Positions 28,557 through 64,000 of a DNA stretch of 64,000 nt are shown one piece after another. The stretch covers positions 29,244 to 93,243 of the forward strand of contig JAZSRL010000010.1 of the NCBI GenBank assembly GCA_045538455.1, in the 5' to 3' direction. A program made the position numbers and the translations under genes. This DNA comes from Clostridia bacterium. Its GTDB lineage: Bacteria; Bacillota; Clostridia; Christensenellales; UBA1242. How positions within the stretch are numbered: the first letter of the stretch is position 1; each line of letters begins with the position of its first letter. The notes beneath the pieces are model-generated. The model was not told the DNA's origin and did no database searches. It saw only the letters and a list, made by a program, of their open reading frames with translations.

Positions 28557-30731
28557 ATGGAAATTCAAGGGACGGTTTCGGCGATAGTTTTTGAAAATGA
28601 AGAAACCGGGTATCGTGTTTTACGGTTAGATAATAACTTGACCGCAGTCGGGGTTGCACCCATGGTTTCGGTTGGGGCAGAGTATAAATTTATCGGCGAA
28701 TTTGTGAATAATGCCAAGCACGGCAAACAATTTGCTTTCACGGAAATTGTGTTAATGCCACCCGATAACGAAGAAAAACTTTTGGCATTTTTAGGTGGTG
28801 GTTTGTTGCCTGGGGTCGGGCCGGCAACGGCGCGTAAAATTGTTAAAAAATTTGGCATGGATACGATTGCTGTGATTGAGTCGCGACCTTCGGAATTAAC
28901 TCAGGTTAAGGGAATTTCGCCGCAGCGTGCACAAAGTATCGCTGCCAATTATATGGCTGTGCGCGAAATGCAGTCCGTAATGATGTGGTTATATCGTTTT
29001 GAAATTAGTTTGAATTTGTCTTTGAAAATTTATCAGCAGTATGGTAAGGATACGATTGCAACTGTGGCGAAGAATCCGTACATTTTAATTGAAACAATTG
29101 ATGGTGTTGGGTTTACGACTGCGGATAATATGGCAAAGAAGTTGGGTGTAAGTTATAATGGGACTTTCCGCGTGCGCGCTGGGGTGGTTCATGTTTTAAA
29201 AGTTAGTGCGGAAACTGATGGTCACACTTATGTGACTTTGCCTGATTTGATTGGTAAGGTTTGTCGTTTGTTGCGAATTAAAATGGAACAATTAACACCA
29301 ACTTTTAACAGCATTATTAATGAACTATGTATTGATCGCGTTGTTGTGGCTGTTGATGTTGATGGTGTACAGGGAATCCAGCTCATTCGATTTTTTAATG
29401 CTGAAAAAGCTATTGCTCAAAAATTATTGTTATTAATGCAAGAAACAAAACCACTAGATAATGTGGATGGGTTAATTAATCATTATGAAAAATTGCAAGG
29501 TATTACATTTCACGAAACGCAAAAGCAAGCAATTAGGCAAGCTGTGACGGGTGGTGTGACTGTAATTACCGGTGGACCGGGAACGGGGAAGACGACTATT
29601 ATTAAGGCAATTTTGTATATCAATAATGCGAATGAAATTACGACACAGATGCTGGCTCCGACTGGGCGGGCGGCTAAACGCATTGAGGAAACGACTGGGC
29701 AGTCCGCGATGACGATTCATCGTTGTCTTGAAAAATTTTCGCACGACCCGCAAAATAGTTTTATTACGCAAGATATGGTGATTGTAGATGAAGTTTCAAT
29801 GTGTGATTGTTTATTGACTGCATCATTATTGCGCAAGGTTTTATCAGGAACAAAGTTGGTTTTTATTGGCGATAGTGACCAGTTGCCATCGGTGGGGGCG
29901 GGTAATGTTTTGGCGGATATCATTGAATCTGGAGTGGTGCCGACAATTCGATTGACTCAGATATATCGTACGGGTGACAAAGCCACAATTGCGATTAATG
30001 CGCACCGCATTAACAATGGTGAAATGCCTTTGTTAGATAATCAAAGCACGGATTTCTTTTATAGTGGTGTAGAAACACCGGAATTAATAAAAAACAATAT
30101 ATTGGGGTTATGTATGACAAGAATACCACAATATCTTGGGGTTGATACTAGTAAGGTGCAAGTTTTAGCACCAATGAAGTTAGGTGCGGCAGGTGTTATT
30201 AATTTGAATAAGTGTTTACAAGAAGTGATTAATCCGGCTGATGAAAACAAAGATGAATTTTTGTATGGTGAAACTATTTTCCGTGTTGGTGATCGTGTGA
30301 TGCATACAGTTAATAACTATAAGCAAGAATGGGTAAAAAATCACGAAGAAGGTAAGGGTATTTTTAACGGTGATATCGGGAAAATTGTTGCCATTAACAA
30401 GGGTAGTAAAGAAATTACTGTAGAATTAGAAGATGGGCGTGTAACTATTTATCCGTCTTCCGAATTGGCATCATTGACTTTGTCTTATGCGATTACCGTT
30501 CACAAAAGTCAAGGTTGTGAGTTTGATGCAGTTGTGATTCCTGTGGTTTCGGGTGCTTATATGATTATGACTCGAAATCTTTTGTATACGGCTGTAACAC
30601 GGGCTAAGCGACTGGTTATACTGGTTGGAAAACAGGAAAATATTCAAAAAATGGTTAATAATACTTTTACAAAGAAGCGTAATTCGTGCTTGAATAAATA
30701 TTTACAATATTTTAAAGATATGGCATACTGA
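28557..30731 (+). CDS. recD2: ATP-dependent RecD2-like DNA helicase
   Basis: N-terminal OB/HhH region (LPGVGPATA), Walker A GGPGTGKT, APTGRAA, DEVSM, GDSDQLPSVG, YAITVHKSQG. Confidence 0.95.
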   Translation: MEIQGTVSAIVFENEETGYRVLRLDNNLTAVGVAPMVSVGAEYKFIGEFVNNAKHGKQFAFTEIVLMPPDNEEKLLAFLGGGLLPGVGPATARKIVKKFGMDTIAVIESRPSELTQVKGISPQRAQSIAANYMAVREMQSVMMWLYRFEISLNLSLKIYQQYGKDTIATVAKNPYILIETIDGVGFTTADNMAKKLGVSYNGTFRVRAGVVHVLKVSAETDGHTYVTLPDLIGKVCRLLRIKMEQLTPTFNSIINELCIDRVVVAVDVDGVQGIQLIRFFNAEKAIAQKLLLLMQETKPLDNVDGLINHYEKLQGITFHETQKQAIRQAVTGGVTVITGGPGTGKTTIIKAILYINNANEITTQMLAPTGRAAKRIEETTGQSAMTIHRCLEKFSHDPQNSFITQDMVIVDEVSMCDCLLTASLLRKVLSGTKLVFIGDSDQLPSVGAGNVLADIIESGVVPTIRLTQIYRTGDKATIAINAHRINNGEMPLLDNQSTDFFYSGVETPELIKNNILGLCMTRIPQYLGVDTSKVQVLAPMKLGAAGVINLNKCLQEVINPADENKDEFLYGETIFRVGDRVMHTVNNYKQEWVKNHEEGKGIFNGDIGKIVAINKGSKEITVELEDGRVTIYPSSELASLTLSYAITVHKSQGCEFDAVVIPVVSGAYMIMTRNLLYTAVTRAKRLVILVGKQENIQKMVNNTFTKKRNSCLNKYLQYFKDMAY

Positions 30732-59332: not shown

Positions 59333-61351
59333 ATGATGAAATATGCCAAAGTTATTATTGATGCGGTTCTAACCAATGATGTTGTATGGGATTATTTAAT
59401 TCCACAAGGTTTAGTTGTTGTCCGTGGTTCATGTGTTGTTGTGTCATTCGGGAAACGCGAAATCGTCGGTTTTGTTGTCGATATTTGTGACCATACGGAT
59501 GTACAGTCGGAAATGTTAAAGCCGGTTCAAGGATTAGCTACGGATTTTGTAATTAAAACTGAATTATTAGATTTGTTGCCGCAGATTTGTGAAAAATTTA
59601 AGTTGCGGGCAATAGATGTTTTAAAATTATTTGTGCCGAGTGCGGTTCGAACTGGAAAACCTAAACGCAATGGAAGTTGCCGTATACCCATGAGCATGGA
59701 TAAAGTGGATAAAAAAGTTATTTTAAACTCAGAGCAACAGCATTGTGTGGACACGGTTTTATCACAGTCGGAAAAAGTCTTTTTATTGAAAGGTGTTACA
59801 GGAAGTGGTAAAACCGAAGTTTATATGAATATTATTGAAAAAGTTTTAGCTGCGGGAAAGACTGCTTTGGTTTTGGTGCCGGAAATTGGTTTAACACCGC
59901 AAGTGTTGTCAATTTTCAAAGCTCGTTTTGGTGATATTGTAGCTATGTTGCACAGTAAATTATACGGCGGCGAGCGTTTTGATGAATGGTTGCGCGTTAA
60001 TGATGGTTCGGCGCGGATTGTCATCGGTGCGCGTTCTGCTGTGTTTGCTCCATTGGAGAATATTGGAGCAATCATTATTGATGAAGAACACGATGGCAGT
60101 TATCAAAGTGATAGTAATCCGCGTTATTTAACCCATGATATTGCTATCATGCGTGGTCAATGGAATCATTGCCCTGTGGTTTTGGGGTCGGCAACTCCAT
60201 CTGTGCAAAGTTTTTATTTAGCTCAACAAGGAAAATATGAATTATTAGAATTGCCAAAGCGCGTAAACAATGTACCATTACCTCATATTGAAATCGTAGA
60301 TATGGCGCATGAAATTCGTTCGGGTAATGGCGGAATTTTTGGGACAGAAGTTTTAAGCGAATTGCTGCAAACTTTGCGGAACGGGAATTCGGCAATGATA
60401 TTTTTAAACCGGCGTGGTTATTCGCAAACAGTTCGCTGTTTACAATGTGGATGGAATGCAAAGTGCGAAAACTGTGATGTTTCTATGGTTTATCACAAAG
60501 ATGATGAACAGTTAAAATGTCATTATTGTGCCGCGCGGCTACCTTTTCCGTCTCGGTGTCCGCAATGTGGCAGTACTTATATCAAGCACGGTGCTATGGG
60601 CACACAGAAGATTTGCTCCGAGCTGGAAAAGATGTTGAGTCAAGCTGGTTTAACCGTTCCGGTTTTGCGTATGGATACAGATAATACGCAAGCCAAAGGT
60701 GCGTTAATAAAAATTTTGGAAGAATTTGCAAATAAAACTCCATCCATTTTAGTTGGAACCCAAATGATTGCGAAAGGACATCATTTCCCCAAAGTTAGTT
60801 TTGTGGCGATTGTGAATGCAGATGGTGGTTTTGTAGCCGATTATCGCTCGGCAGAACGGACTTTTGCATTGTTGACGCAGGTTGCGGGACGGGCTGGTCG
60901 TGAAGTTGGGTGTGCTGGCAAGGTTTACTTGCAAACATATATGCCGAATCATTATGTTTATAAATTTATTAAAAATTATGATTATAACGGATTTTATCAA
61001 AGGGAAATTACCGCACGGCAAGCAACCAAATATCCACCGTACGCAACCATTGTCCGTGTATTAGTTTCGGGGACGGTTGATACCAAAATTATTGAAATTA
61101 TTAAACGCATGATGGAACCTTTACGAGCCTATGATAGTGAGCAACAAGCCTTTATTTATTTGGGAGCAATGAAGTGTCCGTATGGGCGTTTACAAAATAA
61201 ATTTCGATATCAAATCTTAGCACGCATCAAAGAAGATAAAGTTGAAGAGACGATTAATTATATGGATGATGTGATTAAAAAAATTGAGCAGCAGCCATTA
61301 GCACGCCAAGTCAAAATATTTTTTGAGATAAATCCTTCCAGTTTATCGTAA
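59333..61351 (+). CDS. priA: Primosomal protein N' (compact)
   Basis: GVTGSGKTEVY, VPEIGLTPQ, DEEHD, four CxxC pairs, GTQMIAKG, QVAGRAGR. Confidence 0.96.
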   Translation: MMKYAKVIIDAVLTNDVVWDYLIPQGLVVVRGSCVVVSFGKREIVGFVVDICDHTDVQSEMLKPVQGLATDFVIKTELLDLLPQICEKFKLRAIDVLKLFVPSAVRTGKPKRNGSCRIPMSMDKVDKKVILNSEQQHCVDTVLSQSEKVFLLKGVTGSGKTEVYMNIIEKVLAAGKTALVLVPEIGLTPQVLSIFKARFGDIVAMLHSKLYGGERFDEWLRVNDGSARIVIGARSAVFAPLENIGAIIIDEEHDGSYQSDSNPRYLTHDIAIMRGQWNHCPVVLGSATPSVQSFYLAQQGKYELLELPKRVNNVPLPHIEIVDMAHEIRSGNGGIFGTEVLSELLQTLRNGNSAMIFLNRRGYSQTVRCLQCGWNAKCENCDVSMVYHKDDEQLKCHYCAARLPFPSRCPQCGSTYIKHGAMGTQKICSELEKMLSQAGLTVPVLRMDTDNTQAKGALIKILEEFANKTPSILVGTQMIAKGHHFPKVSFVAIVNADGGFVADYRSAERTFALLTQVAGRAGREVGCAGKVYLQTYMPNHYVYKFIKNYDYNGFYQREITARQATKYPPYATIVRVLVSGTVDTKIIEIIKRMMEPLRAYDSEQQAFIYLGAMKCPYGRLQNKFRYQILARIKEDKVEETINYMDDVIKKIEQQPLARQVKIFFEINPSSLS

Positions 61352-61360
61352 ACATAGTTT

Positions 61361-62617
61361 ATGCTTACGGTTGCGGATGCACCAGTACATCATCGTCATA
61401 TTCGTCGTAAAAAATTAAAGGTGAAGAAGCAACGCTCACCGAGAAGTTTAAATGTGTCCAAAATTAATTGTATTCTGCAAAAAATTACGCCGCGTTGTTT
61501 TGATTTGAAGTTGTTAATTGCAGTTTTAGGATTAGTTATTTTTGGGATTTTAATGATATATTCTGCGTCCAATTACAATGCTCAATTTTATTATAATGAC
61601 CCTTTCTATTATACTGTAAAACAGTTGATTGGTTTTGTTTTGGGGCTTATTGGTTTGGGTATCATGTACTTTATAGATTTTCGCTGGTTACAAAAAACAG
61701 CTTTTATCATTTTTACGGTGGCAATTGTGTTATTAATTGCGGTATTTATTCCCGGAATTAGTATTTCTAAATTAGGTGCTACGCGATGGATTGGGATAGG
61801 TAGCTTTTCATTACAGCCGAGTGAAATTGCCAAGTTTGCTTTGGTAATTTTTGCGGCAAGAATATTTGCAGGAAAATTTCAAACTGGCGAAACTTTTGAA
61901 ATTAAAGAGCGGGTTAAGCAACCGCGTTGGTGGCAGATTTTGTCGGTGTTGGCTGCGGGCGGTTTGATGTGTTTGTTGATTATCTTGGAACCAAATATGT
62001 CAATTACGATTACGGTGGGTGTAATTATGCTAGTTATGCTGTTTTTAGGTGGTGTTCCATTAAAAACGATGGCGTTAATTTTGTTGCCAGCTTTGGCGGC
62101 GGCAGTTGTTATGTTGGTGGCGGAACCGTATCGTTTAAAGCGCTTATCTGCATTTATTGACCCATGGGCAAATCCCAAAGATGAAGGTTTTCAATTAATT
62201 GAAAGTTTATATGCAATTGCGAATGGTGGCTTTTGGGGTGTCGGTTACGGTAACAGTGTGCAAAAGCATATGTTCTTACCGTTTTCAGAAAGTGATTTTA
62301 TTTTTGCGATTATTGCTGAAGAATTTGGATTTGTCGGGTGTTTAGCTTTGTTTGCTGTTTTTGCTTTTATAATTTATCGTATTTTTAAAATTGGGTTGAG
62401 AAGTGTGAATTATTTCGGAAGATATTTGTGCTTCGGTATTGCAACCGTAATTATGGTGCAAACCAGTTTAAATTTTGCTGTCGCCACGGGTTGCATTCCG
62501 CCGACGGGGTTACCTCTGCCTTTTATTTCTTTTGGCGGTACAAGCCTGATGGTATTTATGATGGCGATAGGCGTTGTTCTCAATGTAGATAGGCAGAGTA
62601 GGAAGAGTAAAATTTAA
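61361..62617 (+). CDS. ftsW: FtsW/SpoVE SEDS peptidoglycan polymerase (start uncertain)
   Basis: MIYSAS, GATRWI, QPSEIAK, DPW, LPFSESDFIFA..EEFG, TGLPLPFISFGGTS. Confidence 0.92.
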   Translation: MLTVADAPVHHRHIRRKKLKVKKQRSPRSLNVSKINCILQKITPRCFDLKLLIAVLGLVIFGILMIYSASNYNAQFYYNDPFYYTVKQLIGFVLGLIGLGIMYFIDFRWLQKTAFIIFTVAIVLLIAVFIPGISISKLGATRWIGIGSFSLQPSEIAKFALVIFAARIFAGKFQTGETFEIKERVKQPRWWQILSVLAAGGLMCLLIILEPNMSITITVGVIMLVMLFLGGVPLKTMALILLPALAAAVVMLVAEPYRLKRLSAFIDPWANPKDEGFQLIESLYAIANGGFWGVGYGNSVQKHMFLPFSESDFIFAIIAEEFGFVGCLALFAVFAFIIYRIFKIGLRSVNYFGRYLCFGIATVIMVQTSLNFAVATGCIPPTGLPLPFISFGGTSLMVFMMAIGVVLNVDRQSRKSKI

Positions 62618-62700
62618 TTTTTTTAATAAGTGTATACAAAGTGCAAACATTTTGTATGCACTTTCATTTTTATGCTACAATGATTTCTGGGAGAAAAGAC

Positions 62701-63231
62701 ATGGATAAAAACATTACAATAAGACCAGTTAAACCGGAAGATGCGGAGCAGTTTGTATTGTTAGAGAATTTAATTTATAGAAAAACATATGAAAAAATCC
62801 TTTCGAGTGAAGTTATATTAAGAAAAGAAGAACAGACTTCAAATCGTGTCCTGATGTTTTCAGACACTCACAAAAATGACAAGGAAAACATATGTTATGT
62901 TGTCGAAATTGACGGGAACTTAGTAGGATATTTTTGGGGAAAACTCCATTCTTCGTATGAATATTATAATTCGAAAGGATATGCGGATTTAATTGCTTTA
63001 TATATTCATCCTGATTATCAAGGTTTAGGTATCGCTAGCAAATTAAAACAAATTTTTATAGATTGGGCAAAAATTAATGGAGTAACAAAATTTGTTATTG
63101 GCGTTTTAAAAGATAACAACAAAGCGAGAAAAGTTTATGAGAAGTGGGGTGGAGTATTAGATAATTATACTTCTGAGTATAAGGGGTGCGATGAGGTTTT
63201 TTACACTTATAATTTAGAAAAGGAACAATAA
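62701..63231 (+). CDS. GNAT family N-acetyltransferase
   Basis: LYIHPDYQGLGIA and N.KARKVYEKWG; SD GGAG before ATG 62701. Confidence 0.9.
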   Translation: MDKNITIRPVKPEDAEQFVLLENLIYRKTYEKILSSEVILRKEEQTSNRVLMFSDTHKNDKENICYVVEIDGNLVGYFWGKLHSSYEYYNSKGYADLIALYIHPDYQGLGIASKLKQIFIDWAKINGVTKFVIGVLKDNNKARKVYEKWGGVLDNYTSEYKGCDEVFYTYNLEKEQ

Positions 63232-63274
63232 AATTTGCTCTTTTTTCTTACAAAAATTTATAATACAATAACTG

Positions 63275-63415
63275 ATGTTAAGAGGTAGTATTCTGCCGAC
63301 GGGGTTACCTTTGCCATTCATTTTTTTTGGCGGTACAAGTTTAATGGTTTTTATGATGGCGATAGGCGTTGTGTTGAATGTTCAGAAGCAAAACTGTAAA
63401 AATAATAAAATTTGA
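63275..63415 (+). pseudogene. Duplicated 3' end of ftsW as a 46-aa in-frame mini-ORF (MLRGSILPTGLPLPFIFFGGTSLMVFMMAIGVVLNVQKQNCKNNKI)
   Basis: 63290-63382 matches 62495-62587 at 80/93 nt by hand alignment. Confidence 0.9.
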
Positions 63416-63483
63416 AGAATTAATGTAAGTATGATAAACTTAATGTGTTAACAGAAAAAATTCTGAAGGTGGTAAAAGCGATA

Positions 63484-63849
63484 ATGGTTTATAAAGTTGG
63501 AATGCTTTGTAAGCATTTTAAAGGAAAAAATTTGGAAGAAAAAAATATTTATCGAATTGTCGAATTGGGCGTTGACGGCAAAGATGTTTATGCAAATGAG
63601 ATAAGTTATACTGGTGATGGTCATTTAGAGACAGCTGAAAATTTGGTAGTTTATGCCAACATTTTTCAAAACAATAAATTATTTGCGCGGGAATATGAGG
63701 ATATTTCGAGTGAATTATCCCCGGAAAAACAACAGCAATATAATCAAGTATTAAAAGTTCAACCACTTAATGAAGAAGAAATATCAATTATTACTTCTCC
63801 TAAATTTATTGAATTAAAAGAAATACAAACAAGAGAAAAATTTCAATAA
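63484..63849 (+). CDS. DUF1653-like protein
   Basis: HFKG...Y.I, E.LVVY, FAR motifs; start is 63484 or 63445. Confidence 0.7.
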   Translation: MVYKVGMLCKHFKGKNLEEKNIYRIVELGVDGKDVYANEISYTGDGHLETAENLVVYANIFQNNKLFAREYEDISSELSPEKQQQYNQVLKVQPLNEEEISIITSPKFIELKEIQTREKFQ

Positions 63850-63896: not shown

Positions 63897-64000
63897 ATGT
63901 TAATTAAAAAAATAATATTACATAATGATAATTTAGCAACTAATTCAAAAAATGTTATAGAAATTGATTTATCTAAAAGTAAAAATGATAAAGATATTTT
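63897..64000 (+). CDS. 3'-partial ORF of unknown function (MLIKKIILHND...)
   Basis: SD AGGAG at 63890, ATG at 63897, frame open to the window end. Confidence 0.55.
   Translation, partial: MLIKKIILHNDNLATNSKNVIEIDLSKSKNDKDI

Follow-up and report, generated by a model that had tools for sequence, protein, structure and literature searches.

The nearest described counterparts of the locus examined here are integrons and CALIN arrays, which resemble it (PMC4889954, in part) in lining up units of about 0.9 kb in tandem and in one orientation, most of them with a single gene, and in the ending of each ORF against a recombination site; the excerpted text of that source states that Firmicutes genomes yielded no complete integrons. 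Tandem accretion of IMEs and CIMEs offers a second parallel, in that the repeat completes a target housekeeping gene, elements stack in tandem, and some lack an integrase (parts of PMC5704250). In the T6SS immunity arrays of Vibrio, incoming DNA completes a conserved gene and the old end shifts downstream (PMC5361080, in part), and in the minimal mobile elements of Neisseria, variable genes are exchanged by homologous recombination at conserved genes of a competent host (PMC3787668, in part). Lastly, Xer/dif modules are integrase-less units bounded by short sites (dif shapes in an extract of PMC2731167), and the host of the present locus likewise has one XerS-like recombinase.

Here we describe cassette arrays anchored in the 3′ end of ftsW. 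They probably represent an integron-like means of gathering and exchanging genes that has not been described before: a literature search outside subscription journals and supplements found no published description of ftsW-end cassette arrays. An earlier note on this DNA had supposed that ftsW might anchor a cassette-accumulating hotspot, a guess that proved too modest, as the arrays form a system that extends across the family.

The ftsW locus in the window

The window is the whole stretch of 64,000 nucleotides that was analysed, positions 29,244–93,243 of contig C2 of genome G000 (an 899-kb assembly in 12 contigs, 92% complete). Its host belongs to UBA1242 of the Christensenellales, gut bacteria with reduced genomes according to the excerpted text of PMC12306168. 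All features of the locus lie on the forward strand. The anchor is an intact ftsW at 61361–62617 (TIGR02614, 360.9 bits against a cut-off of 337.5; PF01098), which closes with the working 3′ arm and the tail DRQSRKSKI (62489–62617); this arm also accompanies the same GNAT unit in other species and was likely imported with the unit. There follow a hairpin-forming scaffold element that runs into T-rich sequence, putatively a terminator (62628–62663) and recurring in 35 units, and an extended -10-like plus ribosome-binding-like site (62673–62693), read by eye and absent as a promoter from the promoter-scan listing, the layout of which recurs in many units. The cargo, a 176-aa GNAT acetyltransferase (62701–63231; PF00583, E 2e-17), is indeed, as the earlier note had it, the sole ORF between the two ftsW ends. 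Behind it stands a conserved noncoding junction motif (63257–63285, core AATACAATAAC at 63262–63272), missed in the first reading and captured here by a profile of 123 junctions, and then the displaced ftsW 3′ arm with the tail QKQNCKNNKI (63284–63415). Arm positions are counted from the first base of the PPTG codons (position 0), which is 62498 in the working arm and 63293 in the displaced arm.

Recounting bore out the relationship first reported between the two ends. Positions 62495–62587 recur 795 bp downstream at 63290–63382 with 80 of 93 bases matching; eleven codons differ, nine of them synonymously, the two amino-acid changes (Pro>Leu and Ser>Phe) are both C>T, and the tails differ as given above. 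The repeat, which matches at E 1e-27 against the G000 genome, is the only orphan gene-3′-end duplicate among same-strand repeats within 30 kb there. One supporting argument fell away: the downstream copy is not the more T-rich, third-position T being 0.39 in both copies and 0.42 in the ftsW body. The central proposal, that incoming DNA replaced the ftsW 3′ end, stood. Over 93 bases the working arm differs at eight and ten positions from the arms in front of the same GNAT unit in G005 and G011 and at 15 from its own displaced copy, and the nearest match of the displaced copy is the displaced copy of the sister genome G009 (seven differences in 93 bases; 94.4% identity over the arm, with a shared tail). 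The downstream copy is the previous end of the gene but not necessarily the ancestral one, the gene behind it being cargo of a motif-bounded unit in G108. Across 67 intact/displaced pairs, 786 codons differ silently and 156 are changed, so that intact and displaced arms alike come from working ftsW genes. The GC content of the GNAT cargo is 0.305, against 0.376 for ftsW.

Between the displaced arm and the contig end lie four accessory ORFs and a gene, presumably metG-like, the last two ORFs and this gene being outside the window; none of them carries a recombinase annotation, and the domain scan covered the first. That first ORF (63484–63849) shows the DUF1653 similarity noticed earlier, at 23.0 bits just under the cut-off of 23.5, and a 75%-identical protein is cargo in G108. 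The next, of which the window holds the start only (63897–64000) and which we take to be barstar-like, has a 52%-identical counterpart between two junction copies of locus L212. Because such genes are the cargo of bounded units elsewhere, those behind the displaced copy are likely to be older cassettes minus their junctions.

In the genus of the window (here 59333–62617), ftsW lies 3′ of priA and usually 5′ of genes that we take to be def/fmt-like, not of murA. Since arrays also form where def/fmt-like genes follow, the target is ftsW and not the cluster. Core genes upstream include an ATP-dependent DNA ligase (PF01068; 57756–59060) between a sigma-factor cluster and rpoZ-priA-ftsW, and 7112–27385 holds an open reading frame of 6757 aa that contains short repeats. 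Elsewhere, short dispersed repeats, some with tRNA-like ends, lie near resolvase and methyltransferase-like genes (G000:C8:16580–31420 and locus L072), and contig C1 of G000 carries a 572-aa serine recombinase; these are ordinary islands unrelated to ftsW.

Cassette arrays across the family

When the last 44 FtsW residues were searched against 401 family genomes, 388 matched, and 61 of these (G000 included) held at least two ftsW 3′ matches. Loci were taken for 59 of the 61, leaving aside G335 and G403, which have two long genes on separate contigs. A DNA profile of the arm returned 143 non-intact copies in these loci; the 123 with a readable left end, from 55 genomes and with as many as 22 in G298, 10 in G240 and nine in G107, were scored as junctions, and copies consisting of a distal remnant only were left out. 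The motif precedes 113 of these 123 copies (score of at least 24 of 36), in 47 genomes and 18 genera. Each unit has the same order: ftsW arm (starting near -9 and ending at the stop), shared tail, hairpin, its own extended -10-like and RBS-like site as read by eye, ORF, and motif. One ORF is present in 87 of the 114 units bounded on both sides, the median unit is 935 bp long, 165 of 178 ORFs lie on the ftsW strand, and a few units reach 3–10 kb. The hairpin spacer has one and the same length, 15 nt, in 31 of 35 units, a constancy that could suit a pair of protein-binding half-sites better than a terminator loop.

Most arrays sit between ftsW and a gene that we take from its N-terminus to be murA-like, which 20 of them reach inside the analysed DNA, and units are found 5′ of murA-like, def/fmt-like or metG-like neighbours (all three names assumed from sequence). 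The GNAT unit of the window ranks first in G000, G005 and G009 and second in G011. Decay does not grade with rank along the arrays (Spearman 0.05, p 0.70, n = 57), and so gives no order of cassette arrival. Among 185,579 species genomes, the exact motif-plus-ftsW pattern occurs in 39 stretches, 38 of them labelled Clostridia, Clostridiales, Christensenellales, Catabacter, Onthoplasma or Caccovivens. The remaining stretch, on a contig of 2.8 kb labelled as a cyanobacterium (L196:1–2786), has three junction copies and a typical scaffold and reflects either mis-binning or transfer out of the family.

Two further observations concern array structure. A repeated element of about 130–150 bp with palindromic parts, presumably MITE- or REP-like, occurs within or next to many ftsW arms, in either orientation (L074, L087, L088, L090, L094, L127, L031, L035 and L113, with displaced-arm hosts G107, G255, G271, G415, G367, G079, G030, G031 and G237); it was not found in G000. 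In G240, an assembly with 5% contamination, array pieces that start with motif-decayed copies lie away from intact ftsW (L080 and L081; C7:310–314 kb and C9:108–110 kb).

The cargo itself is varied. Of the 177 ORFs, 171 were scanned for domains (E 1e-5 and 1e-8; six left out), and 25 of these are GNATs; others belong to HAD, NUDIX, HD, ASCH, peptidase S51, methyltransferase, glycosidase and LRR families, and there are a phosphotransferase and metallo-beta-lactamase-fold proteins. Cargo of GNAT, NUDIX, HAD, HD and methyltransferase types resembles that of integron cassettes. By family assignment, the acetyltransferases, the phosphotransferase and the metallo-beta-lactamase-fold proteins may be counted among the kinds that give rise to resistance genes. 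No recombinase, integrase or transfer family appears among the 171 scanned proteins, in keeping with the integrase-less cassette first proposed. Some large units (L075:3750–11351 and L100:6796–10464) encode either a Hint-domain protein next to one with a lectin domain, or a protein of 1223 aa that weakly matches the HopA1 family.

The core of the junction motif, ARTRCAATAAC at -31 to -21, shows 77–96% agreement at fixed positions and a pairwise identity of 0.80, as against 0.33–0.38 just upstream and 0.56 in the adjoining stretch from -20 to -10; for displaced arms the corresponding value is 0.72 at codon positions 1 and 2, and third positions reach only 0.34. The motif is common to two scaffold types whose tails differ, and cargo stop codons overlap the core or fall within 15 nt of it in over half of 110 cases. 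In G000 the window junction is the only strong match to the motif profile (37 bits; the next scores 14.4). Such conservation hints that a factor acting in trans reads the motif. The motif may resemble the TnpI site, and a relaxase nick site is another candidate role. When 30 of the 45 intact junctions were folded as DNA, mean z was 0.02 and 0.03 on the two strands, with no attC-like single-strand fold; three array loci gave no Rfam matches.

A dif-like reading was also tried. The intergenic, terminus-proximal site G000:C7:82108–82131 (L271:1501–1524), 3.9 kb from the GC-skew peak, is kept in G005 and G010 and has 11 bases in common with the motif. As support for a dif origin it was rejected: at three mismatches it is kept in six of 151 genomes, it reads as a sigma-70 promoter on the opposite strand, and a looser dif-like pattern is multi-copy with many control matches. 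No family-wide dif resembling the motif was found, and the motif has no conserved inverted arms.

Movement of units and candidate mechanisms

Units move between species and genera. The window unit is 97.4–97.7% identical to those of G005 and G011, whose host ftsW genes stand at 74%, and cross-genus pairs (G271/G367, G298/G302 and G188/G298) share units at 94.9–96.4% where host ftsW, if measurable, is 58–59% identical. Not only do whole units travel, but gene ends are exchanged: G009 matches G000 at 97% up to -7, at 66.7% over -6 to +92 and again at 97% downstream; this sister swapped only its ftsW end. Its unit is 94.3–94.9% identical to that of the window, though the surroundings are at 97%. 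Across 56 array genomes the correlation of host phylogeny with local identity falls along the arm from rho 0.40–0.55 to 0.13, 0.07, 0.20 and -0.07, and predictive power is lost from about -33 to -1 onward; in 24 non-array genomes, a set weighted to one genus, rho stays at 0.36–0.65.

The breakpoints vary. Alignments of 12 like-unit pairs, read by eye, show identity starting on the left anywhere from -9 to about +100 and ending on the right between about -45 and +9, and the arm travels intact with the unit in the G005/G011 pair but not in most of the 12. Several switches in the genus of the window fall near the left arm edge (about -13 to +18), with many others elsewhere in the arm. Eight of the 67 intact/displaced pairs, from single-unit genomes, match at 86–92 of 93 bases between host-specific sequence on both sides, and others are patchy. 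Variable breakpoints and host-specific flanks are a trace of homologous recombination or gene conversion.

Assembled contigs from eight of 24 sequencing runs add to this picture. Contigs of other gut runs carry the GNAT unit of the window, and in run X9 a different arm follows from -7. No circle, back-joint or empty site was seen in the contigs of these eight runs; joints of 62616/62617 to 63231/63238 probably come from further units built on this scaffold.

A search for a linked recombinase gave no candidate. G000 has a single tyrosine recombinase (best match XerS, 161 bits, below the cut-off of 267) and two serine recombinases at loci other than ftsW. With three recombinases as tblastn queries, the analysed array loci gave one match, beyond the flanking core genes in G243, and 23 queries found none in 52 further loci. 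Among PF00589, PF07508 and PF01797 in 50 genomes no array-linked recombinase was found. PF00589 proteins occur in all 50. Neither PF07508 (17 of 26 array and 14 of 24 non-array genomes) nor PF01797 (one of 26 against four of 24, and none in G000) tracks the arrays. Long tyrosine recombinases of about 450–490 aa, seen by eye in some 13 of 26 array and three of 24 non-array genomes, were rejected; 20 of them are mostly 21–50% alike and have flanks without the motif. No phage or plasmid with motif or arm turned up in four viral scans or in BLAST searches of plasmids and phages. A peptide encoded by the displaced arm was likewise rejected, about half of the copies having disallowed residues or breaks and many no start codon.

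The reading that we prefer, and to which we would give an even chance, is that units insert through their homology arms with the help of a motif-reading factor supplied in trans, building a cassette array anchored in the ftsW 3′ end. A unit would leave an array as a circle or linear piece and enter a new cell, perhaps by uptake of free DNA, which the comEC gene of G000 makes plausible. It would then pair either with ftsW or with one of the arms that the array contains by then, and joining would keep ftsW whole and push the old end behind the motif. The motif itself would be the likely binding site of a factor encoded elsewhere, which is a candidate for excising units or starting the exchange. 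Copies would differ mostly at silent sites because only arms coding for a working FtsW end would spread. Where the displaced arm has decayed, as in the window, a cell that lost the first unit would be left with a damaged ftsW, and the cargo would thereby be locked in. A factor that reads the motif is preferred over a passive motif because the motif is conserved and unrelated ORFs stop at it.

Several points weigh against this homology-arm reading. The search gave no candidate for the factor, and the assembled contigs showed neither a circle nor an empty site. Arms of different genera are often only 70–80% identical over about 130 bp, and a MutS-family gene is present, which makes them a poor substrate for ordinary homologous recombination; the switches at the left edge (about -13 to +18) would fit a fixed-site integrase equally well. 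Such an integrase, acting in trans from a helper or as the XerS-like enzyme of the host, could insert circles near -9 to -1, the arms being scrambled later by homologous recombination. We judge this unlikely, yet it has real points in its favor: TTA at -15 and G at -11, letters specific to the junctions, are absent from the intact ftsW of 54 array genomes, foreign sequence starts precisely at -6 in the intact ftsW of G009, the motif keeps both its position and its sequence, and a PF00589 protein occurs in every one of 50 genomes. It fits poorly with the failure of the arm to stay intact in transit in most like-unit pairs, with third codon positions of the target that vary freely, and with a search that linked no integrase to the arrays and saw the dif-like candidate fail.

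Homologous recombination alone would dispense with the factor altogether, leaving the motif as a relic of a founding insertion that is kept as the longest perfect match between repeats. Patchwork arms, comEC and the absence of a recombinase from the search all agree with such an account. What makes it rather improbable is the motif: its core is better conserved than both the adjoining stretch and the coding positions of displaced arms, it is shared by scaffold types with different tails, and unrelated ORFs end against it without eroding it.

The remaining explanations fare worse. A gene-3′-end direct repeat, tandem stacks and a few units of 3–10 kb recall integrative elements (parts of PMC5704250) that would have been stacked at ftsW by site-specific accretion and decayed into CIMEs, but with no integrase or transfer family in the scanned cargo, a standard scaffold common to the units, and whole units moving between genera, we hold this very improbable. 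Sequential displacement by homology-facilitated illegitimate recombination, as for Vibrio immunity arrays, has the same outcome of new DNA completing the gene and the old end shifting downstream (PMC5361080, in part); that model has no specific integration site, 113 of 123 junctions here lie at one position behind one motif, and the fixed junction already largely refutes it, making it slighter still. The chimeric assembly of two strains that the earlier note itself raised, conceivable in a 12-contig assembly of which no run contig spans the whole stretch, is practically negligible, as arm, GNAT, motif, second arm and downstream genes follow one another in G009 just as in G000, a single contig of run X6 spans 62238–63613, and arrays occur in 47 genomes.

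Comparison with known cassette systems

Set against the described systems, the ftsW arrays agree in part with several. Homologous exchange at conserved genes recalls Neisseria, but its minimal mobile elements lie between two different flanking genes and have their content replaced, whereas each ftsW unit lies between repeats of a single gene end and content builds up (PMC3787668, in part). Vibrio T6SS arrays, as far as the extract of PMC5361080 goes, differ in having no fixed junction and in carrying cognate effector-immunity pairs. With Xer/dif modules (dif shapes in part of PMC2731167) the difference lies in the site, the ftsW motif having neither conserved inverted arms nor a matching family-wide dif. 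The XerS-like enzyme of G000 is a point of contact with this class, which includes pdif modules.

The direct repeat with the 3′ end of the target gene kept intact, a hallmark of IMEs and CIMEs, is present at ftsW, and we file the arrays as a variant of gene-end-replacing tandem elements. CIMEs, however, are decayed integrase-coding elements (parts of PMC5704250), whereas ftsW units are standardized cassettes of one gene each, numbering up to 22 in a genome, with a coding arm of about 130 bp and variable breakpoints. No integrase-coding parent or remnant was found at the loci analysed; a parent element could be unassembled, because several arrays end at contig breaks. We lean slightly against a further view, that the arrays make up a separate, integrase-less class of cassette system, in which each arm would substitute for an essential gene's end while serving its cassette for landing, and a host factor acting at the 11-bp motif would excise or capture units.

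The likeness to integrons is closest in architecture, co-oriented one-gene units that end at a site being common to both. It ends at the machinery: the ftsW arrays have no adjacent integron integrase and no attC hairpins or other stable single-strand fold at the junction, and what is repeated in them is the 3′ end of a gene for an essential protein (integrons and CALINs as in the excerpted text of PMC4889954). Each ftsW unit also brings its own promoter-like site. Integron cassettes have a promoter in common. Arrays of this ftsW kind would probably escape standard integron and island finders. To our knowledge, how genes become cassettes is still open for integrons, and the 113 natural junctions offer material for learning it; they also point to a candidate DNA-processing factor. 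In essence, gut bacteria with genomes of about 1 Mb keep a cassette pool shared across genera and anchored in a cell-division gene. If the arrays do make up a separate class, they would do for genome-reduced gut Clostridia what integrons do for Proteobacteria, and the essentiality of ftsW would lock the cargo in.
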